Origin: Candidatus Omnitrophota bacterium
GTDB taxonomy: Bacteria; Omnitrophota; Gorgyraeia; Zapsychrales; Fredricksoniimonadaceae
DNA length: 64,000 nucleotides
NCBI GenBank assembly: GCA_963828495.1
Contig: CAWHFJ010000009.1
Coordinates: 106,338-170,337, forward strand
Reading direction: 5' to 3'
Notes under the pieces: generated by a model
What the model saw: the letters and a program-made list of their open reading frames with translations, nothing else
Told to the model about the DNA's origin: nothing
Databases searched by the model: none
Shown: positions 2,606 to 53,005 of the stretch, one piece after another
Numbering within the stretch: the stretch's first letter is position 1
Layout: each line of letters starts with the position of its first letter
Translations under genes and position numbers: made by a program

Positions 2606-3885
2606 ACCTTGTTGCGTCCGGTTTCTTTAGCTTGATACAGCGCCTCATCCGCCTTATAAATCAAATCCTCTTTCGACCGGGCATCAACGGGAAAAGAGGC
2701 GACACCGATGGAGACTGTCACATAGGTTTTCTGCCGGCGCAGGGTGATTTCATGCGTTTCAATTTTTTCCCTGAGTTTATTGGCCAACTGCACGGCTTTA
2801 GATTTGGGACAATTCGGCAGTAAAATGCAAAACTCTTCCCCCCCGTAACGGCATAGCAAATCTCCCGGGTCACTGAATTGCTCTTCCATCAGATGGGCTA
2901 CACTCTTTAGCACGATGTCCCCGGCTATGTGGCCGAAAGAATCATTATATTTTTTAAAACGGTCTAAATCAATCATCATAAAGACAAGCTCGGCCCCTAC
3001 GCGTATGCCCCGGGCAATTTCTTCATTGAGACGTTCCAGCATATGCCGGCGAAGATACAACCCGGTCAGCCCGTCTTTAATGGCCATGGTCTCCAGACGT
3101 TCGTACAGCTGCGCATTTTCAATGGCGATGGACGTCACATCCGCAATGGTCCGTAAAAACCGCAAATCATCTGTGGCAAAGTGGCGCGCCACGGTGCTCT
3201 CCACGCGTAGAATGCCCAGTGTTTTTTCCCCCACAATAAGGGGGGTGGAAATGAGCGAACGAATAAGACGTTTCTCTTCCGCTCCTATTTTATCCAGATC
3301 AAAACGGAAATCCGTATGAACGTCCTCCACGAGCAGAGGATGCATGGTCTTGATGACAAACTGATCGAAAATATCCCCCTTTTTGGCCTTGAGATCGACT
3401 TGCATCTGCCCTTTTTGAGAAGAAGAAAGCCCCAGTTCGCCGGTGGTGGAATGGAATAAATACAAAATCACGGTCACATCTTTATGGCCGAAAAGACGAC
3501 TGACCTCGACAGACAAAGTATTCGATGTCTCCTCCAGGCTCAAACACAGGCTTAATTTTTCGGTCAATTCTTTTAAATGTGCATAACTGATGATCTTCTG
3601 GCGCAGAGACTCGATGGTTTCCCATTCACGCTGCAATTCGGCTTTCAGCAAATTGGCACGCTCAAAATACTCCTCTTTCTGCAAAGCAATGTGCGACTGT
3701 TTTTTTTGCAGACGTCTGTGAAAAGCCATCAATAAAAAAATATTGATCAAAAGGGCAGCTGCCAGGAAGAAATAGGCCGCGGGATTGTGAGATGCGTAAA
3801 CAAAAAAACCCACTAAAGGGACTAGGAAAGAAAAAACAACTAGGAAATACAGCCTAGATAATGGTTTCTTCGGTTTTCGAATCAA
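2593..3885 (-). CDS. diguanylate cyclase with two TM segments, coiled coil, GAF and GGDEF domains
   Basis: RYGGEEFCILLP active site and a GAF-like region (LISTPLIVGEKTLGILRVES). It overlaps both neighbouring genes. Confidence 0.9.
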   Translation of the reverse strand: MIRKPKKPLSRLYFLVVFSFLVPLVGFFVYASHNPAAYFFLAAALLINIFLLMAFHRRLQKKQSHIALQKEEYFERANLLKAELQREWETIESLRQKIISYAHLKELTEKLSLCLSLEETSNTLSVEVSRLFGHKDVTVILYLFHSTTGELGLSSSQKGQMQVDLKAKKGDIFDQFVIKTMHPLLVEDVHTDFRFDLDKIGAEEKRLIRSLISTPLIVGEKTLGILRVESTVARHFATDDLRFLRTIADVTSIAIENAQLYERLETMAIKDGLTGLYLRRHMLERLNEEIARGIRVGAELVFMMIDLDRFKKYNDSFGHIAGDIVLKSVAHLMEEQFSDPGDLLCRYGGEEFCILLPNCPKSKAVQLANKLREKIETHEITLRRQKTYVTVSIGVASFPVDARSKEDLIYKADEALYQAKETGRNKVCAA

Positions 3886-4957
3886 AGAAGTGTACCTTGC
3901 TCATGTCGAATATCAGGTCCATGTCCCGGTTGACATCCGGCAGGTCATGGGCCCCAACGCGAGCGATAAAATTATGCTTGCCCGTTGTTAAATACAGGTA
4001 GACCTCGGAGCCCAGTGGCTCCACCACTTCACAGGTGGCCCGCACGGTATTTTCGGGTGAGGCGTCGGAAGCGAACAGTCTATCGTAAATGTCCTCCGAA
4101 CGGATCCCCATAATGATTTCCTGACCGCTATACTCAGCAATCTTAGGATACATCTCGTCTAATAGTTTAACCTGAAACTTACCTTCATTAAAGAAATATT
4201 TGTGGTCCCTCTTGATAATCCGGCCCGTAATAAAATTGATCGGAGGCGAACCGATGCAGGAAGCCACAAATTTATTGGCCGGCTTATCATAAACCGTTAT
4301 AGGGTCCGCACATTGCTGGATCAATCCTTCATTCATGACCACAATACGGTCCCCCATGGTCATGGCTTCGGTTTGATCGTGCGTCACATAAATAAAGGTC
4401 GTCTGCAAGCGCATGCGCAATTTATGGATTTCGGTGCGCATCTGTACGCGCATCTTGGCATCCAGGTTGGACAGCGGTTCATCGAAAAGAAACACCAAAG
4501 GTTTGCGCACAATGGCGCGGCCCAAGGCCACACGCTGGCGTTCCCCTCCGGAAAGCTCACGCGGCCGGCGTTCTAAATATTGGTTGATCCCCAAAACTTC
4601 AGCCGCTTCATGGACGCGTTTCTCAACTTCGGGTTTGGGATAGCGGTGTAATTTGAGGCCAAAGGCCATATTTTCAAACACGTTCATATGCGGATACAGG
4701 GCATAATTCTGGAACACCATGGCAATATTGCGGTCTTTGGCAGGAACATCATTGACTAAGCGATCATTGATCCAAATCTCACCGGAGGTGACTTCTTCCA
4801 ATCCGGCCACCATGCGCAAGGTGGTGGATTTACCGCAGCCGGAAGGCCCGACAAGTACGACAAACTCCTTATCGCCGATTTCCAAATTAACATTCTTGAC
4901 GGCATCGAAACCGCCTTTATACCTTTTGCAAAGATTTTTGATCCTGATATGGGCCAT
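3854..4957 (-). CDS. sugar-type ABC transporter ATP-binding protein (MalK/UgpC-like), no permease or binding protein adjacent
   Basis: Walker A GPSGCGKST, signature LSGGERQRV, Walker B LVFLFDEPLS, and a C-terminal MalK-type regulatory domain. Confidence 0.9.
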   Translation of the reverse strand: MAHIRIKNLCKRYKGGFDAVKNVNLEIGDKEFVVLVGPSGCGKSTTLRMVAGLEEVTSGEIWINDRLVNDVPAKDRNIAMVFQNYALYPHMNVFENMAFGLKLHRYPKPEVEKRVHEAAEVLGINQYLERRPRELSGGERQRVALGRAIVRKPLVFLFDEPLSNLDAKMRVQMRTEIHKLRMRLQTTFIYVTHDQTEAMTMGDRIVVMNEGLIQQCADPITVYDKPANKFVASCIGSPPINFITGRIIKRDHKYFFNEGKFQVKLLDEMYPKIAEYSGQEIIMGIRSEDIYDRLFASDASPENTVRATCEVVEPLGSEVYLYLTTGKHNFIARVGAHDLPDVNRDMDLIFDMSKVHFFDSKTEETII

Positions 4958-4959
4958 AA

Positions 4960-5802
4960 TTAGTTTTGAAAATAGCCTATCGCATGCGCCAAAACCCCTT
5001 TAAGGTCCTGGCGTTGGACAATCATATCAATCATGCCGTGGGCCAATAAAAATTCCGAACGTTGAAAGCCCGGAGGTAATTTTTGTCTTATGGTCTGTTC
5101 CACGACCCTGGGGCCGGCAAAACCGATCAACGCTTTGGGTTCGGCGATAATCACGTCCCCTACCCCGGCGAAAGAAGCCATGATCCCCCCCATGGTCGGA
5201 TTCGTCAATACCGAAATATACAACAGCCCCGCCGCCTGATGACGCTGCAGGGCCGCACAGGTCTTGGCCATCTGCATGAGCGAAATAGCCCCTTCATACA
5301 TGCGCGCCCCGCCGCCGGAACCTGAGACAATAATCACCGGCAATTGCTCCCGGGTCGCATATTCCACCAGACGGGTTATTTTTTCACCTACGACAGAGCC
5401 CATGGATCCCATGATAAAACGCGAATCCGTCACCGCCAGGGCAACTTTTTTCCCTTCAATGGCGCCATAACCGGAGATCACGGCATCTTGAAGCCCCGTG
5501 GACTCCTGGTCCTGTTTGATTTTTTCTTTATAGGTCTTGGGGCCTTCAAATGCCAACGGGTCACCGGAGACCATATTCGGGTCTGTCTCGTTAAATGTCC
5601 CCTCATCAATTAAATGCTCAATGCGCTCGCCGGCCGTTAAACTCAAATGAAAGCCGCATTTGGGGCAGACATTCAGGTTGTTCTTTAATTCTTTGGAATA
5701 CGCCGGCGACTCACAGCCCGGGCATTTGGTCCATACGCCGGCGGGGATCTCCTTGCGCTTGACTTTGATAAAGGTGTAATTGGATTTCCCGAATAAGGAC
5801 AT
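4960..5802 (-). CDS. accD: acetyl-CoA carboxylase carboxyltransferase beta subunit
   Basis: N-terminal zinc ribbon CPGC..CPKC followed by a carboxyltransferase domain. Length of 280 aa is typical. Confidence 0.92.
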   Translation of the reverse strand: MSLFGKSNYTFIKVKRKEIPAGVWTKCPGCESPAYSKELKNNLNVCPKCGFHLSLTAGERIEHLIDEGTFNETDPNMVSGDPLAFEGPKTYKEKIKQDQESTGLQDAVISGYGAIEGKKVALAVTDSRFIMGSMGSVVGEKITRLVEYATREQLPVIIVSGSGGGARMYEGAISLMQMAKTCAALQRHQAAGLLYISVLTNPTMGGIMASFAGVGDVIIAEPKALIGFAGPRVVEQTIRQKLPPGFQRSEFLLAHGMIDMIVQRQDLKGVLAHAIGYFQN

Positions 5803-5830
5803 ATATTTACCGTGCCATTACTCTCAATAT

Positions 5831-5972
5831 GGCGGGGCCTGGCTTGGCCTCGATATTAAGGTGCTCCTAATTGAAATGCGTTTGTCACAGCCTTAGCTCT
5901 TGGTGATTTACCTCGACTGCCCCTTGGGGCCGTCACCGTCCGCTCCTTAATATCGAGGCCAAGCCACCCGCC
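5831..5972 (+). repeat. family E palindromic repeat, copy 1
   Basis: A perfect 21-bp stem pairs GGCTTGGCCTCGATATTAAGG (5841..5861) with CCTTAATATCGAGGCCAAGCC (5945..5965), extended by GGCGGG/CCCGCC. The stem encloses an ~87-nt core that recurs at 46224..46310. Confidence 0.7.
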
Positions 5973-5998
5973 GCTTAATTTAGCCTTATGTTCTCGCT

Positions 5999-14100: not shown

Positions 14101-14309
14101 TCTAGACGCGTGCTATTTGGCTTAAATTTGTTTCTAGAACATGCTTGTCTATTCGGCCATTGTGTTTTCTTCGAAGGTAGTAGAAGGCTGATTTGGCATG
14201 GTCCACCTTCGCCTAGATAGCGGTGGCAAATCAGCCTGGGCCCTAGCGAAGCCGCATCGCTGGATGCGGCGAGCGTGCCTGAAAGAATAAATTGAAGCCA
14301 AATAGCCTG
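14101..14309 (+). repeat. composite repeat locus: family D terminus fragment, a 12-bp inverted-repeat pair, and family A copy 1 (right end deleted)
   Basis: TCTAGACGCGTGC at 14101..14113 matches the D terminus. GCTATTTGGCTT (14112..14123) and AAGCCAAATAGC (14295..14306) are perfect inverted repeats bracketing family A copy 1 at 14147..14283. Confidence 0.7.
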
Positions 14310-14381
14310 CTAAAAATTGCTGTTGTTACTCTGTATCAATAACTAAATCAATATTCCCTGTTTCTTCAAAGGCGGAATGTT

Positions 14382-16511
14382 TTAGTCTGTTTCGATAACT
14401 AAATCATCCCCTTGGGCATCAACGGTAATTTTCTGTCCTTCTTTGATTTCTCCCTGCAGCATGCGCAAAGCGATGGGGTCTTGCACCATGCGCTGAATGA
14501 CCCTCTTTAACGGACGGGCCCCGTAGACGGGGTCATAACCCTGACGGCCCAAAAGGTCCCGGGCTTTGTCCGTTGTCTTTAATTGAATGCCGCGGGCTTT
14601 CAAACGCTCGGCTAATACCCCTATTTGAATATCCACGACCTTCTTTAATTCTTTCATCCCCAAACGACGGAAAATCACGATTTCATCCACGCGATTTAAA
14701 AATTCAGGACGGAAGTGATGCCGCAAAGCATCCTGGATGCGATGATCATTTTCTTTTTGGTCCTCTGATACAGCGACATCCAAAGTACCGATATTGGAAG
14801 TCATAATGACAATGGTGTTTTTAAAATTCACCACTCTTCCCTGACTGTCAGTCAGGCGCCCGTCGTCCAACAACTGCAAAAGCACATTAAAAACATCCGT
14901 GTGCGCTTTTTCAATTTCATCAAAAAGCACTACCGCATAAGGTCTACGGCGTATGGCCTCGGTCAACTGCCCGCCTTCTTCGTAGCCGACATAGCCTGGC
15001 GGTGCTCCGATCAGACGCGCCACCGAGTGTTTCTCCATATACTCGCTCATGTCTATGCGCACCATGGCATTTTCATCATCAAATAAGAACCATGCCAACG
15101 ACTTGGCCAGTTCCGTTTTGCCCACACCCGTGGGGCCCACAAAAATAAAAGAGCCCGACGGCCGATGAGGGTCAGATAGCCCCGCGCGAGAACGGCGGAT
15201 ACAGGAGGCAATGGCGGCAATAGCATCATCTTGTCCCACCACACGCCCTCTTAAGGCATCTTCCATGTGGACTAATTTCTGCGTCTCGCTCTCCATCAAT
15301 TTAGACAAAGGGATTTTAGTCCACTTGGCCACAATCTCGGCGATGTCCTGGTCATCGACTTCTTCTTTGAGCATAGCGCCGTCTTTTTGCAGCTTAGCTA
15401 ACTCTTTATTTTTGCCTTCCAATTCTTTGTTAAGTCCGACGAGCGTCCCATAACGGATTTCCGCAACTGTATTCAGGTCACCTATTTTCTCAGCCTGGGC
15501 CTCTTCGATTTTCTTATCTTCCATCTGAGCTTTGAGTGCACGAATACGATCAATGACAACCTTTTCACCCTGCCAGCGCAGGCGCATAGCTTTATTCACT
15601 TCTTTCAGGCGGCCTAATTCCTCATCAATTTTCTTAAGCCTTTCACGGGAAGCCGGATCCGTTTCTTTTTTAAGCGCTTGCCGCTCAATCTCCAGACGGC
15701 GGATCTCGCGCTCATTCTGGTCAAGCTCCTGAGGCATACTGTCAATTTCGATGCGCAGCTTAGACGCCGCCTCATCGATCAAATCAATGGCTTTATCCGG
15801 CAGGAAACGCTCCGTGATATAACGCTGACTCATCATAGCCGCGGCGACGATCGCAGAATCCTGTATACGCACCCCATGATGGATTTCGTATTTTTCTTTT
15901 AACCCTCTTAAAATAGCAATAGTGTCCTCGACACTCGGTTCATTAACGATGACCTGAGCAAATCGCCTCTCTAACGCAGCGTCTTTTTCGATATATTGAC
16001 GGTATTCATCAAGAGTGGTCGCCCCGATACAACGCAAGCCCCCGCGGGCCAAAGCCGGCTTAAGAAGGTTGGAGGCATCTATCGAGCCTTCGGCACGTCC
16101 TGCGCCCACAATAGTATGCAACTCATCAATGAATAAAATAACGGCCCCGTTTTGGTCCTCCACTTCTTTTAAAACAGCTTTCAGGCGGTCTTCAAACTCG
16201 CCGCGGAACTTGGCGCCGGCCACCAAAGCACCCATATCTAAAACAATGATCCGCTTGTGTTTAAGCCCCTCCGGCACATCCTGAGAAAAAATGCGCTGGG
16301 CCAGCCCCTCAACGATGGCGGTCTTGCCGACCCCCGGCTCGCCGATCAAGACCGGATTATTTTTAGTGCGGCGTGAAAGCACCTGGATACAGCGGCGGAT
16401 TTCTTCATCGCGCCCGATAACCGGGTCTAATTTGCCTTTGCCGGCCAATTGGGTCAAGTCACGGCCATATTTTTCCAATGCCTGATGCTGCTCTTCGGAA
16501 TTTTGGTCCAT
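14382..16511 (-). CDS. clpB: AAA+ disaggregase ClpB lacking the N-terminal domain
   Basis: Two Walker A motifs ([16 protein letters not shown]) and a long middle coiled coil. The protein begins at ..[13 protein letters not shown], which is where the N-domain normally ends. An AGGAG RBS precedes the ATG at 16511. Confidence 0.93.
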
Positions 16512-24104: not shown

Positions 24105-24773
24105 TTAGGCATCCGGCGGCACAACAACCTCAAAACCTTCTGCCAGGCGCTGATAATAAACGCCTCCCCAGACAAAATAATTAACTCCGTCAGCCATCAC
24201 TATCTGATAATCCGGGGGGAGATAATCAACCACGGCACCAACGACAGGGCCAATAGTCACTAATTGATCCCCCTCTTGCTGATAAAAAACACCCTCGCTA
24301 TAAAAGTATGTTTGGCCATCTACCACGACCTCCTCTAAGTCATCCGGGACAACAATAGCAGGGCTTACAGGAATGTAGGTGACCCTCTCCTCATAATATT
24401 TATACAAATCTCTATCGTAATTACGCTGTGGGTACTGCCCACGATGTTGGGGCTCAACGCGTACCGGCCCTGCTACATTCATAGGCACTTCATGCTGAGG
24501 CGGCCCTACCCGATGCTGGGGCGGCTCTACCCGATGCTGGGGCTCAACGCGTACCGGCCCTGCTACATTCATAGGCGCTTCGTGCTGGGGTAGCTGCACA
24601 CGACGTTGGGGCTCAACGCGTACCGGCGGTACTACATTCATATGGACTTGATGTGGTAGGGGCTGCATGCCTGCATTTTCCCAAGAGGCATAAGCCGGTA
24701 CTGATGCGCCTGCGAGAAGGGCCGTAAAGAACAGTGTGCTAAACACCGTGTTGATATTTTTTATGGGTTTCAT
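24105..24773 (-). CDS. secreted protein with tandem Pro/Gln/His-rich repeats and a Tyr-rich C-terminal domain
   Basis: Signal peptide MKPIKNINTVFSTLFFTALLAGASVPAYA (start at ATG 24773 with a GGGAGG RBS). The repeat MNVAGPVRVEPQHR occurs about three times. No family recognised. Confidence 0.7.
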   Translation of the reverse strand: MKPIKNINTVFSTLFFTALLAGASVPAYASWENAGMQPLPHQVHMNVVPPVRVEPQRRVQLPQHEAPMNVAGPVRVEPQHRVEPPQHRVGPPQHEVPMNVAGPVRVEPQHRGQYPQRNYDRDLYKYYEERVTYIPVSPAIVVPDDLEEVVVDGQTYFYSEGVFYQQEGDQLVTIGPVVGAVVDYLPPDYQIVMADGVNYFVWGGVYYQRLAEGFEVVVPPDA

Positions 24774-24846
24774 GGTTGCCTCCCTGCCCCGCTGGGCTCT
24801 TCCCATCCTTCACCCATTTAGACACTAAAAACCCCTTGAAAGTTCC

Positions 24847-26704
24847 CTATTTTCTTAAATAGATCATCAACAGCACAATAGCCGCCGGAGTCATCCCGGA
24901 AATCCGGTTAGCCTGACCTAACGTAATGGGATTAAAACGGTTAAGCTTCTCTGTGATTTCTTTGGAAAGTCCGGGGATCCTGTTAAAATCAAAGCCCGGC
25001 GGTATCCGGATATATTCAATATGCTTAAACTTTTCCACTTCCTTGTGTTGACGGCGGATAAAACCTTCATACTTAATTTCATATTCGACCTGAGCGATCA
25101 CCTGCCGGCCTAATTTTTCCAGCGTCCCGTCAAAGCCCGCAATCATATCATAAGTAATTTCCGGCCTTTTGAGCAAATCATAGAGTGAAATCGACTGCTT
25201 CAGAGGCGCACTGTCTACCTTTTTAAGAATGTCATCCAGTAATGTCCCCGGAGGGATCTTTGTTAAACGTAAATGTTCTATTTCCTTCTCAATGGCCGCG
25301 TATTTGGCCGTAACTTGATCATAATCTTGGGGTAACAAAAGTCCCAGGTGATGCCCGTATTGCGCCAGACGTTTGTCTGCATTGTCCTCGCGCACGATCA
25401 GGCGATACTCCACCCTCGATGTAAACATGCGATAAGGCTCCTCGGTCCCGCGAGTGACCAAATCATCAATCAACACTCCGATATAAGATTCATGGCGGCC
25501 TAAAATAAGCGGCTCTTTGTCTTGAACTTGCAAAGCGGCATTGATCCCGGCGACCAGGCCCTGGGCAGCGGCTTCTTCATAACCGGTTGTCCCGTTAATC
25601 TGGCCTGCTAAAAACAAGCCCTTGATTTTCTTGGTTTCCAATGTCGGCTTTAATTCCGTCGCCGGCACCACCCCATGCTCAATAGAATAGCCGGGACGGA
25701 CAATCACGGCTTGCCCAAGTCCGGGGATGGAGTGGACCATCTCTTCCTGCACATGGGCCGGAAGACCGGTGGAGATACCGTTAGGATAATACTCAAAAGT
25801 ATCCAACCCTTCGGGCTCCAGAAAAACATGATGCGTAGGCTTGTCCGCGAATTTCTTTAATTTATCTTCAATGGAGGGACAATACCGTACGCCGGTGGCC
25901 TTAATCTGACCGGAATACATCGGGGAGAGATGAAAATTCGCCCGGATAATGTCATGGGTGCGTTGGGTCGTATGCGTAATATGGCAAGATAAAAGTTTTC
26001 GTTCTTTGGGAATAAAAGGCGTTCTAAAAGAAAACGGCACAATAGGATCGTCAGACGCCTGGTACTCCATACCCGTAAAATCAATGGTACGTCCATCCAG
26101 GCGCGGGGGTGTGCCGGTCTTAAACATCATGATCTGGAAGCCCAGATCGCGGATACAGCGGGCCAAGCGTATGGATGCCTGTTCATTGATACGGCCGCCG
26201 GAGGTAATCTGTGGCTCCGATATGGATGCGCCCGTCTAAAAAAGTGCCTGTGGCGATAATCACCGTCGGGGCTTCTACATGCAAACCACTAACGGTCTTA
26301 ATACCCTTAACTTGTCCCCCGGCCACCAGAAGATCACAGACTTCATCTTCAATAACAGTCAAATGCGGCTGATTTAAGACCACATGTTGCATATACAAAC
26401 GGTATTGCTTGCGGTCTGCCTGGCAGCGGGACGAACGCACCGCCTGGCCTTTGGAGGCATTTAATTGCCTAAATTGGATCCCTGTGCGGTCGGCGGCCAG
26501 ACCCATTTCCCCGCCTAAAGCATCGATCTCTTTGACTAACTGGCCTTTGCCGACACCTCCGATGGCGGGATTACAGCTCATCTGTCCGATGGTGTCACGG
26601 CTCAAGGTCACCATGGCCGTCGCAAGGCCCATGCGGGCTGGCGCTAAAGCCGCCTCAATGCCGGCATGTCCGGCGCCTATAACGATGCAATCAAATGAAT
26701 TCAT
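24847..26704 (-). pseudogene. mnmG: tRNA uridine 5-carboxymethylaminomethyl modification enzyme MnmG, split by one frameshift (ORFs 26183..26704 and 24847..26166)
   Basis: The N-terminal fragment carries the FAD motif VIGAGHAGIEAA. The C-terminal fragment carries KTGTPPRLD. The shifted frame reads through the junction as ITSGGRINEQASIRLARCIRDLGF. Confidence 0.9.
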
Positions 26705-26744: not shown

Positions 26745-26955
26745 TGAACGCGTTAGTACTAGAACGGGATAAATTTATTCTTTTCGCTCCTGTCATCGTT
26801 TTCTTAACGCCAAAAATTCTTATGCTGGTTCGGTGCTCAAACAAGTTTGACCATTTAAGACCGAAGTCTTAAATACCCTCACCATCATAAGTTTTTTGGC
26901 TAAAAACGATCAGTCGCTTCAAAGAACAAATTTATCCCGTACAATGCACGCGTCT
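26745..26955 (+). repeat. family D long imperfect palindrome, copy 1
   Basis: The two arms GGGATAAATTTATTCTTT.. and ..AAAGAACAAATTTATCCC pair over ~85 bp around the tip hairpin TTTAAGAC-CGAA-GTCTTAAA (26854..26873). Homologous to 52757..53005. Confidence 0.7.
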
Positions 26956-27113
26956 ATTCGGTCATTGTGTTTTCTTCGAAGGTAGTAGAAGGCTGATTTG
27001 GCATGGTCCACCTTCGCCTAGATGGCGGTGGCAAATCAGCCTGGAGACTAGCGAAGCCGCATCGCTGGATGCGGCGAGCGTGCCTGAGAAGGAAATACAA
27101 TGGCCGAATAGAC
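26952..27113 (+). repeat. family A terminal-inverted-repeat element, copy 2 (full length, 162 nt)
   Basis: TIRs are GTCTATTCGGTCATTGT (26952..26968) and ACAATGGCCGAATAGAC (27097..27113). The interior is nearly identical to 14147..14283 and to the reverse complement of 52556..52717. Confidence 0.75.
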
Positions 27114-27155
27114 ATCCATGAAGAAATTAATTGAAGCCAAATAGCCTGCGGGAAC

Positions 27156-46199: not shown

Positions 46200-46370
46200 C
46201 GGGGCCTGTCTCGGCTTCGATGTTAAGGTGCTCCTGATTGAAATGCGTACGTCACAGCCTTAGCTCTTGGTGGTTTACCTCAACCAGCCCTCGGGGCCGT
46301 CACCGTCCGCCCCATATTCCCTATTGCTTGCTCGGCAACTCTAACTTCAATGTCCGAGCCCACCCGCCGC
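46200..46370 (+). repeat. family E palindromic repeat, copy 2
   Basis: The core at 46224..46310 is about 85-90 percent identical to 5857..5943 by eye. The 5' arm is homologous to copy 1. The 3' arm is interrupted by ~34 extra nt. Confidence 0.7.
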
Positions 46371-46405
46371 AATTCTTAGAGAATTAAGTGTGTGTCACGT
46401 TAATT

Positions 46406-46466
46406 AAAAACGAACAGTCGCTTCAAAGAACAAATTTATCCCTTACAATGAACGTATGCGTCTAGA
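46406..46466 (+). repeat. family D right-arm fragment, copy 3
   Basis: AAAAACGAACAGTCGCTTCAAAGAACAAATTTATCCCTTACAATG..GCGTCTAGA matches 26903..26955. Confidence 0.6.
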
Positions 46467-46493
46467 GCTGAAAAGCTATTATCATAATAATTT

Positions 46494-47791
46494 TCAGCTC
46501 GAGGTCGTGCCTGCTATAGCCAAACAATCTATCGCCTCTGCCACTAGGAAAATGGAACCCGTCACCAAAACTACATCCTGAGCGCCTGCCATCTGCATCG
46601 CCTTCTGTAAAGCTTTCGGCAAAGACGCTACGATTTCAACGGGTTGTCCGCCAAAATAACTCTGCGCCTCCGCGGGCGTAAATACATGGGCCCGTGGGTG
46701 TTTGGCCTGAGTCAAAAAAATATGCGCCACGCTGTTTTTTAAATGCGCGCTCATGGCCCGCGCATCTTTGTCTTCAGACACCCCCATCACCAGGAGTACC
46801 CGTCGGTCAGGATACTCCTCGACAAGGGTCTGGGCCAACGCTTGGGCCGAAGCTGCATTATGCGCGCAATCGACAACCACATCCGGGCGCGCCCTCAACA
46901 ATTCAAAACGGCCGGGCCAGCGGACATTTTTGAGCCCTTCCACCAACGCCTCATCACTGATTTTAAACCCTGTATCTTTTAATACCGCCGCAACTTCCAA
47001 GGCCACAGCCGCATTCACTACTTGGTGCTTCCCCTTCAAGGCTATTTTTAAATCTTTGTATTTATCCGGATGCACTAGTATCGGCTCAATGGCAAATGCA
47101 CGGCAACGCGCACGCACAATATCCATGACCTCTTTATCTTGGGGCGCCACCACGACTTTCTGACGGGCGTTCTTAATTATCCCCGCTTTTTCCGTCGCTA
47201 TTTGGCTTAACTGTGTGCCTAAAATCCGGGTATGGTCAAAGCTCACCGGCGTAAGGGCCGCTACCAAAGAATCCACGGCATTGGTCGCATCCAGCCGTCC
47301 GCCCAAACCTGTTTCCAAAATAATCACATCCACATGCCTTTGAGCAAAGTAGCACAACGCCGCTACTGTTAACACTTCGAAAAAGGTAAGGACCTCCCCC
47401 CTATTTTGAATAGCCGCGGCAAAAGGACGCAAATCCGTCAGTACCGCAGCCAAGTCCTCGTCGCTGATAGAACCTGAAAAATACTCTTTAGAGCGGAGGT
47501 TGGCCTTATTCAAAATACGGACACGCTCATTGACCCTGTGCAAATGAGGCGACGTATACAGTCCGACGGTGTAGCCGGCCTCCTGCAAAATGCCGGCCAA
47601 GAAAGCACAGGTCGACCCTTTGCCCTTGGTCCCTGCCACATGAATAATGCGTAAATCCCGGAAGGGTTACCCACCAAATCCAAAAATTTATGAATACGGG
47701 CTAAATTAAAATCTTCGCCGCGCAGTGTATGAAGTTGGGACTCAAAATTGACAAAGGAATTAAGGTATGCGTGCGGATTAAACGCAGTCAT
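46494..47791 (-). pseudogene. folC: folylpolyglutamate synthase/dihydrofolate synthase FolC, split by one frameshift (ORFs 47510..47791 and 46494..47639)
   Basis: The C-terminal fragment has the P-loop HVAGTKGKGST once read from the shifted frame (RDLRIIHVAGTKGKGS). The N-terminal fragment ends ..FLDLVGNP and then goes out of frame. Confidence 0.88.
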
Positions 47792-52555: not shown

Positions 52556-52717
52556 GTCTATTCGGCCATTGTATTTCCTTCTCAGGCACGCTCGCCTCGT
52601 CCAGCGACTCGGCTTCGCTAGTCTCCAGGCTGATTTGCCACCGTCATCTAGGCGAAGGTGGACCATGCCAAATCAGCCTTCTACTACCTTCGAAGAAAAC
52701 ACAATGGCCGAATAGAC
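52556..52717 (-). repeat. family A terminal-inverted-repeat element, copy 3 (full length, inverted orientation)
   Basis: GTCTATTCGGCCATTGT (52556..52572) and ACAATGGCCGAATAGAC (52701..52717) form a perfect 17-bp TIR. The interior is the reverse complement of copy 2 with a few substitutions. Confidence 0.75.
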
Positions 52718-52756
52718 AGACACATTAATGTGCCTCACACATAATAGCTTTTCATT

Positions 52757-53005
52757 TCTAGACGCGTGCATCATTGTAAGTGATAAATTTGTTCTTTTTG
52801 CGACTGTAGTTTTTAGCCAAAAAACTTATGCTGGTGAGGGTATTTAAGACTTCAGTCTTAAATGGTCAAACTTGTTTGAGCCTTACAGTTCTAGAGAGCT
52901 TTAAGGCGAGTTGTTTGACCACCGAACCAGCATAAGAATTTTTGGCGTTAAAAAAACGATTCCAGGAGCAAAAAGAATAAATTTATCACTTACAATGCGT
53001 GCGTG
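52757..53005 (-). repeat. family D long imperfect palindrome, copy 2 (inverted orientation, ~40-nt internal insertion)
   Basis: Starts TCTAGACGCGTGC and ends ..TACAATGCGTGCGTG. Tip hairpin TTTAAGAC-TTCA-GTCTTAAA. It abuts the era stop codon. Confidence 0.7.

Follow-up and report, generated by a model that had tools for sequence, protein, structure and literature searches.

What is the non-coding repeat of 162 nucleotides (nt) that occurs three times in this stretch of a Candidatus Omnitrophota genome? A preliminary description, made from the letters of the 64-kb window (the whole stretch of DNA that was analyzed), had offered three readings of the repeat, named Family A: a MITE, a structured RNA family, or both. 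As checks, it proposed counting copies beyond the window, testing for covariation, and scanning against Rfam. Both of its ideas turned out to be partly right. Family A is probably a structured bacterial MITE family specific to one Candidatus Omnitrophota clade, and its structure is under strand-specific constraint. The family was previously undescribed, and it is an ordinary kind of element, set apart only by a branched hairpin fold that paired mutations preserve and that is more stable on one strand. The analysis documents a small mobile repeat family in Candidatus Omnitrophota; in the literature searched, no paper joined Omnitrophota and inverted-repeat transposable elements.

The copies had been placed at 14147..14283 (copy 1, plus strand, right end missing), 26952..27113 (copy 2, plus strand, full length), and 52556..52717 (copy 3, minus strand, full length and inverted), and we found them at these positions and in these orientations. 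They are 93 to 96% identical (156/162 between copies 2 and 3, 131/137 between copies 1 and 2, and 127/137 between copies 1 and 3). Their 17-mer end has five matches with at most one mismatch in the window, versus 0.22 expected in shuffled sequences. Comparison with copy 2 showed that the right end of copy 1 was lost when 34 nt between two short direct repeats, GAAGGAAAT and GAAGAAAT, were deleted. None of the reading frames stays open in every copy, in line with the earlier remark that no frame is conserved, and subfamilies differ from each other by indels of 4 to 5 nt. Family A thus codes for nothing. The statement that no transposase lies nearby also held: among about 55 open reading frames (ORFs) of the window, searches with Pfam and NCBIfam detected no transposase, recombinase, or reverse-transcriptase domain.

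Copy 2 consists of 3 nt of flank, TA, a 152-nt element, TA, and 3 nt of flank. The element proper is placed at 26957..27108 (plus strand), since conservation drops outside the TA. The left and right TA, a putative target-site duplication, are at 26955..26956 and 27109..27110. Of the 17-bp terminal inverted repeat (TIR) described before, the inverted ends stand and the boundary does not: the outer 5 nt on each side (GTC plus TA and TA plus GAC) are probably flanking target and TA duplication. As RNA, copy 2 folds exactly as had been drawn, with a closing stem of 26 bp that includes G.U pairs, a capped helix, and a separate hairpin. Based on fold and covariation, the arms of the closing stem were assigned to 26957..26983 and 27082..27108, and the second hairpin, GCCGCAUC-GCUG-GAUGCGGC, to 27056..27075. 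Covariation defines the long internal hairpin GGCUGAUUUGG...CAAAUCAGCC at 26990..27042, the apical part of which is variable (all plus strand). The left arm of the closing stem holds conserved G.U positions and an invariant tandem G.A/A.G, located in copy 2 at 26978-26979 opposite 27086-27087.

The differences between the window copies were mostly read correctly. The C-to-T change in the left TIR of copy 2 (position 26962) does give a U.G pair, and in its last hairpin copy 3 does replace an A-U pair by G-C and gain a new tandem G.A/A.G. This P5 variant of copy 3, GCCGAGUC/GACGAGGC, is common to L005 and L019. The claim that all remaining changes lie at or near the TAGAT loop is contradicted by copy 1, which at a junction (14240-14242) has GCC in place of AGA, breaking one pair of a 3-bp helix.

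Searches outside the window revealed a larger family. Of 185,579 genomes representing species, only two contain a match to a degenerate 26-nt end pattern, and both are Candidatus Omnitrophota MAGs; a 22-nt internal pattern matched 32 metagenome contigs with one copy each. Public genomes and metagenomes together added about 30 distinct copies to the three of the window. All of them come from contigs of a single Candidatus Omnitrophota clade and occupy unrelated intergenic sites in these related genomes. After removal of duplicates, 23 distinct full-length copies (158 to 163 nt) were available, plus longer, shorter, and truncated ones. From the 23 we built a covariance model, R1, which scores copy 2 with 184.9 bits. 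Scanning with R1 found no copy in the window beyond the three, and one additional copy in L020 that the exact 22-nt pattern had missed. The 22-nt stretch is identical among the pattern-found copies by construction; the additional L020 copy differs from it at a few bases, so the conservation of this stretch is not solely an artefact of ascertainment. The element measures 152 to 158 nt, or 195 to 199 nt in copies with nested inserts, and every full copy has complementary ends of 20 to 26 bp.

The closest named homologues of the MntH and ClpB proteins of the window are labelled Candidatus Omnitrophica. Several copy-bearing contigs encode MntH proteins 81 to 86% identical to that of the window, showing that the family belongs to one clade. 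No similarity to plasmids or viral contigs was found. The window itself carries housekeeping genes (e.g., dnaK/dnaJ/grpE, clpB, leuS, mnmG, mntH, era, and purH); every credible gene is on the minus strand and the GC skew is negative throughout, an unusually strict co-orientation.

Several observations bear on mobility. All copies are intergenic and they occur in both orientations, usually 5 to 45 nt past a stop codon and between tandem or convergent genes. Flanks are unrelated between copies, and when all ORFs up to 3 kb away from the copies were compared with one another, synteny was seen but no recurrent partner gene. The mntH-mnmG spacer is devoid of Family A in relatives whose MntH is 94 to 95% identical: L049/L050 have only one repeat of another family and the mnmG promoter there, and L039/L040 have other repeats. 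Downstream of clpB, Family A is missing in relatives with 96% and 91% identical ClpB (L047 and L048). L020 is syntenic with the window (lacI, mntH, and mnmG), and its two copies occupy other spacers. L007 and L031 share the flanking genes and a homologous right flank, and the element between them is in opposite orientation. Besides copy 1, the copy in L034 is truncated, and those in L004 and L025 are interrupted by other repeats. Short-read contigs with the window's own MntH and ClpB end inside the element, as expected of a multi-copy repeat. Thus, Family A is dispersed in many copies and is absent from orthologous spacers of close relatives, and these data together with the assembly breaks support the reading as a mobile repeat.

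A base-precise empty site was sought using window-identical proteins and homologues of MntH and ClpB, and none was found, because all orthologous spacers examined have been rebuilt by other repeats and cannot be aligned base for base. Lacking such a filled/empty pair, we can only infer the TA duplication. Neither the window nor about 400 kb of loci revealed an autonomous copy with these ends or a transposase, and there were no extra ends in the loci with up to four mismatches. The spacers of these Omnitrophota genomes are mosaics of several nested MITE families, which turn over between genomes whose proteins are still 91 to 96% identical. The repeats break short-read assemblies of these MAGs and could serve as strain markers.

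We gave virtually no credence to the idea that the copies are remnants of a segmental duplication, or chance palindromes, with no family dynamics. It has its starting point in the window, where copies 2 and 3 are part of a more extensive inverted duplication (26768-26907 matches 52809-52987). However, this duplicated block is a separate repeat family that exists without Family A at 46405-46482 and in L049, and some 30 copies with unrelated flanks are spread over many contigs. The folding free energy of copy 2, -95.1 kcal/mol as RNA, corresponds to a z-score of -11.8, which also speaks against this idea.

The ends of the element were compared in 27 independent copies. Terminal TA is invariant at both sides (left, T and A in 27/27; right, T in 27/27 and A in 26/27). 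The three bases outside the TA contain only 0.5 to 1.5 bits, and hardly any conservation is seen further out. Bases outside the TA vary among copies with near-identical interiors, and TTC, TGT, ACA, and GTT were found within one subfamily. When both flanks were joined around a single TA, short palindromes resembling TYTARA resulted: GTCTAGAC (five copies), GTTTAAAC (five copies), TTCTAGAA (four copies), and relatives of these. The positions directly beside the TA are almost never mixed, forming CTAG or TTAA (C..G 12, T..A 9, T..G 1, and C..A 0), and the T/A two bases outside the TA is nearly invariant. Insertion at TA with duplication of this dinucleotide is a property of IS630-family transposases (PMC2170065). 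Judged from the joined flanks, the TA of Family A is probably a target duplication within a TYTARA-like site. Alternatively, the inverted repeat could run to the very end of the element with no duplication, as the CTAG/TTAA pairing is equally compatible with this.

Copy 2 offers a suggestive case. The motif GCACGCGTCTAGA is uninterrupted at 46458 and 52757, beside two other copies of a neighbouring repeat family. At copy 2 it is split, reading GCACGCGTC-TA-element-TA-GAC; beyond TAGA, the motif is not continued. The split, GTCTA-element-TAGAC, would point to a TA duplication. Two further ideas on the ends were dropped. Site-specific insertion into a pre-existing small palindrome was rejected, since no "empty" palindrome was present in 400 kb. 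The missing combination of an X-left with a Y-right end was rejected as a strand signal, since only 2.1 copies were expected and the deficit is not significant.

The covariation test was performed on an alignment of the 23 full-length copies. The RNAalifold consensus has 57 pairs in six helices, and 97% of the alignment cells form standard pairs, versus 34 to 45% if partners are slid by one to three columns. Double-sided changes are present at 16/57 pairs, and the observed covariation score was reached in 0/500 shuffles. All helices contain compensatory changes. In the long hairpin, both sides changed at pairs 39-92, 45-86, 49-82, 57-81, 59-79, and 61-77; pairs 110-121, 111-120, and 112-119 covary in the second hairpin. 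No cell is broken at pairs 39-92 (A-U 13, G-C 10), 45-86 (A-U 13, C-G 5, U-A 5), 49-82 (G-C 15, U-A 6, A-U 2), 59-79 (A-U 13, C-G 10), and 112-119 (U-A 13, A-U 9, C-G 1). Common descent of the copies makes these counts larger than the number of independent events.

Compensatory changes can also arise by a non-selective route, the templated correction of quasi-palindromes, and some of the double changes could have this origin. Such correction would remove wobble pairs, yet several of them are retained: U.G 32-132 in 23/23 copies, G.U 18-146 in 20/23, and U.G 22-142 in 12/23. The tandem G.A/A.G at 27-28/136-137 is invariant in the 23 copies, and the most frequent combination of end variants again has a tandem of this type, as does the variant hairpin of copy 3. 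Junction strands outside the forced search pattern, such as GGCGAGCGUGCCUGAGAAG, are nearly invariant. We conclude that a branched fold comprising a closing stem, two hairpins, and a tandem G.A is conserved through compensatory changes. Compensatory evolution combined with the strand asymmetry described next makes the family a convenient test case for the question of whether MITE hairpins are kept by selection on RNA, by the mechanism of transposition, or by templated palindrome repair.

Strand-specific wobble, noted at first in three copies, shows the same pattern in 23. The forward sense is the more stable one in 23/23 copies, with mean values of -83.3 versus -65.4 kcal/mol (a difference of about 18). 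For copy 2, the reverse complement reaches -71.4 versus -95.1 kcal/mol with RNA parameters; with DNA parameters the gap is smaller (-50.6 versus -42.7). The bias was also seen in site types, with 12 G.U versus 2 A.C sites (p = 0.013), and in mismatches, with 15 purine-purine versus 3 pyrimidine-pyrimidine (p = 0.008). These data show that the structure is under strand-specific constraint. The folded strand may be RNA or single-stranded DNA.

An explanation on the RNA side is that Family A is first of all a dispersed structured RNA, either a small RNA gene family or a cis-acting module for processing or stability, and that spread is secondary. We consider this unlikely, although it is the strongest of the rival explanations and is supported by several of the above results: compensatory changes in all helices, G.U and tandem G.A on the forward strand only, an asymmetry that is larger with RNA than with DNA parameters, and the near invariance of unforced junction strands. 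Moreover, a weak sigma-70-like site, TTCAAA-16-TACAAT, ends 6 nt before copy 2, and there is precedent in bcr1, a repeat that is transcribed and keeps its fold by compensatory changes (PMC3184786). On the other hand, copies 1 and 3 have no promoter-like site and none of the three has a terminator-like tail; a dedicated promoter was accordingly rejected. About 14 copies are in sense and 11 in antisense orientation to the gene that has its 3' end toward the element, so that an orientation bias with respect to read-through transcription was rejected as well. Rfam gave no match in the whole window at the gathering score. For the element at E ≤ 10 it gave only a spurious 13-bit match to PYLIS_3, so no Rfam family explains it. 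No neighbouring gene recurs, and presence/absence in close relatives as well as truncated and interrupted copies give no hint of an indispensable gene.

Near-random orientation, together with a weak promoter-like site at copy 2 only, means that selection on host transcripts at each inserted copy cannot explain the strand asymmetry. The constraint seems to act on those lineages that keep spreading, and its basis may be a life-cycle stage at which the element is single-stranded, or the RNA transcribed from active copies. Plain double-strand cut-and-paste leaves the favoured strand fold and the kept internal helices unexplained.

A single-stranded DNA intermediate, whose folded strand is recognized by an HUH/Y1 enzyme as in PATEs and REPINs/RAYT, would account both for the strand specificity of the fold and for the absence of a long duplication. 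One strand folds more stably than the other, with DNA parameters also, G.T and tandem G.A stabilize DNA hairpins too, no flanking direct repeat is longer than TA, and a GGTAGTAG motif is located 5' of the long hairpin. We nevertheless regard this route as improbable. The inverted repeats of 20 to 26 bp reach the very ends of Family A, whereas IS200/IS605 ends are subterminal hairpins with no TIRs, and TA is found at both ends where a conserved tetra- or pentanucleotide restricted to the left end would be expected. Family A is not built like a REP doublet of short GC-rich hairpins, the window contains no Y1 transposase, and an "empty" palindromic target was not found in 400 kb.

Both known classes of this type were considered and rejected as assignments. 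REP/REPIN elements are inverted doublets of short GC-rich hairpins that have a 5' GTAG, and a RAYT gene is present in the genome; Family A has one long closing stem and two different internal hairpins, and no Y1 transposase is present in the window. PATEs, which derive from IS200/IS605, lack TIRs and have subterminal hairpins, and the conserved tetra- or pentanucleotide of their target adjoins the left end alone; in Family A, TIRs reach the ends and the context is symmetric at both ends.

On the preferred reading as a structured MITE, Family A fits among the TA-ended repeats of other bacteria: RUP, Correia, and ERIC are bacterial MITEs with TA termini, and they resemble it in size and in having TIRs (reviewed by Delihas, PMC2229807). 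Like Family A, RUP is small, non-coding, and intergenic, has TIRs and TA ends that are taken as target duplication, and inserts near or into other mobile elements (PMC2229807). The likeness, which is one of description, has its limits: RUP is 107 bp long and has a known partner, IS630-Spn1, that shares its ends, and a branched fold with covarying internal helices, as in Family A, is not reported for it. Correia/NEMIS elements of Neisseria are 100 to 155 bp long with inverted repeats of about 24 to 26 bp and terminal TA, are intergenic and present in many copies, and their transcripts form long hairpins (PMC2229807). Features of Correia are an IHF site, promoter elements, and RNase III cleavage, and the hosts belong to a different phylum; no transposase is known for Correia or for Family A.

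The ERIC/IRU repeats of enterobacteria are imperfect palindromes with terminal TA as well, ERIC being about 127 bp long (PMC2229807). ERIC acts as RNA when cotranscribed, in an orientation-dependent manner (PMC2229807), whereas Family A has no orientation preference with respect to neighbouring genes. ERIC also departs from Family A in that its TIRs are short and it contains open reading frames. Among repeats, preservation of the fold by compensatory changes has its closest precedent in bcr1 of the Bacillus cereus group. The bcr1 repeat of about 155 bp is similar to Family A in that its distribution is not conserved between related strains and that its cruciform-like fold is maintained in RNA by compensatory changes (PMC3184786). 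It differs by its 5-bp flanking direct repeats and its known transcription, Family A having TA ends and long TIRs.

On the preferred reading, movement would most likely be by cut-and-paste, with transposase supplied in trans by an unseen insertion sequence of the IS630/Tc1-mariner type. The binding sites of this transposase would be the terminal inverted repeats T(T/G)(C/A)GG(C/A)CATTGTG..., and integration would take place at the TA of a short palindromic TYTARA site (such as GTCTAGAC, GTTTAAAC, or TTCTAGAA), with duplication of the TA. Copies would survive only in intergenic spacers, among other MITE families, and the lineages that propagate would retain a branched single-strand fold that is more stable in one sense. 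The fold is probably of importance either in transcripts, for instance in how read-through RNA is tolerated or processed, or at a single-stranded stage in the life of the element. TA as a duplication, the type of transposase, and any role of the fold are what we infer from sequence comparison.

A more far-reaching variant, to which we attach little weight, holds that the conserved strand-specific fold is itself the working part, either as a folded single-stranded intermediate (RNA or DNA) recognized by some enzyme or as a dispersed RNA module recruited by these small-genome bacteria. If true, the RNA module could be, for example, a processing or insulation signal between genes, and the invariant tandem G.A pairs would be a protein-binding motif.

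Other repeats surround the Family A copies. A second family of about 180 to 230 nt, with the inverted ends GGGATAAATTTGTTCTTT.../...AAAGAACAAATTTATCCC, is present at 26768-26950, 52772-52997, and 46405-46482, and in L049 at 2565-2785. Copy 2 adjoins it, and the mntH-mnmG spacer of L049 holds this family in the opposite orientation. A third family, with the inverted ends GCAGGCTATTTGGCTTCAATT..., was detected at 14107-14135, 14286-14310, and 27122-27150, in L039 at 4335-4580, and in L048 at 3645-3880. Its ends enclose an interior of about 190 nt in L039 and L048. In the window they lie on both sides of copy 1, which is thereby placed between the inverted ends of another repeat family, and on one side of copy 2. 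This suggests nested insertions.

A fourth repeat at 5816-5990 and 46200-46316 (87% identity over 117 nt) has inverted arms of 49 nt at 5816-5864/5942-5990, and pieces resembling ...CCCTATTGCTTGCTCGG... are inserted inside the Family A copies of L004 and L025. Spacers of relatives contain a short hairpin repeat, GTCATTCCCGCGAAAGCGGGAATGAC (L008 at about 845-900, L034 at about 5400-5440, L039 at 2910-2940, and L045 at 2415-2490), sometimes directly beside Family A copies. Just left of copy 3, on the minus strand at 52718-52745, GTGTGAGGCACATTAATGTGT is similar to TATGAGGACATTGTGT, the alternative form of the Family A left end, and may be what is left of another, degraded copy. Together with copy 3, it occupies the loop of a hairpin, GAAATGAAAAGCTATT...AATAGCTTTCATCTC, which is uninterrupted at 46464-46501.

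Three genes of the window deserve mention. The mnmG region (24847-26704) is divided into two ORFs of 439 and 173 amino acids (aa), and L039, a close relative, has a single gene of 618 aa; the split reflects either a frameshift, with mnmG then a pseudogene, or a mistake in the assembly. The final 25 nt of clpB occur in duplicate, at 14326-14350 and 14382-14406, with 88% identity and 56 nt from start to start, separated by 31 nt containing GAAACAGGGAAT. The clpB genes of relatives end with the downstream version, and it seems that a small insertion rebuilt the 3' end of the gene. Finally, within the DUF6515 gene (24105-24806), a unit of about 90 nt is repeated in tandem three times at 24425-24673, with 72 to 79% identity.
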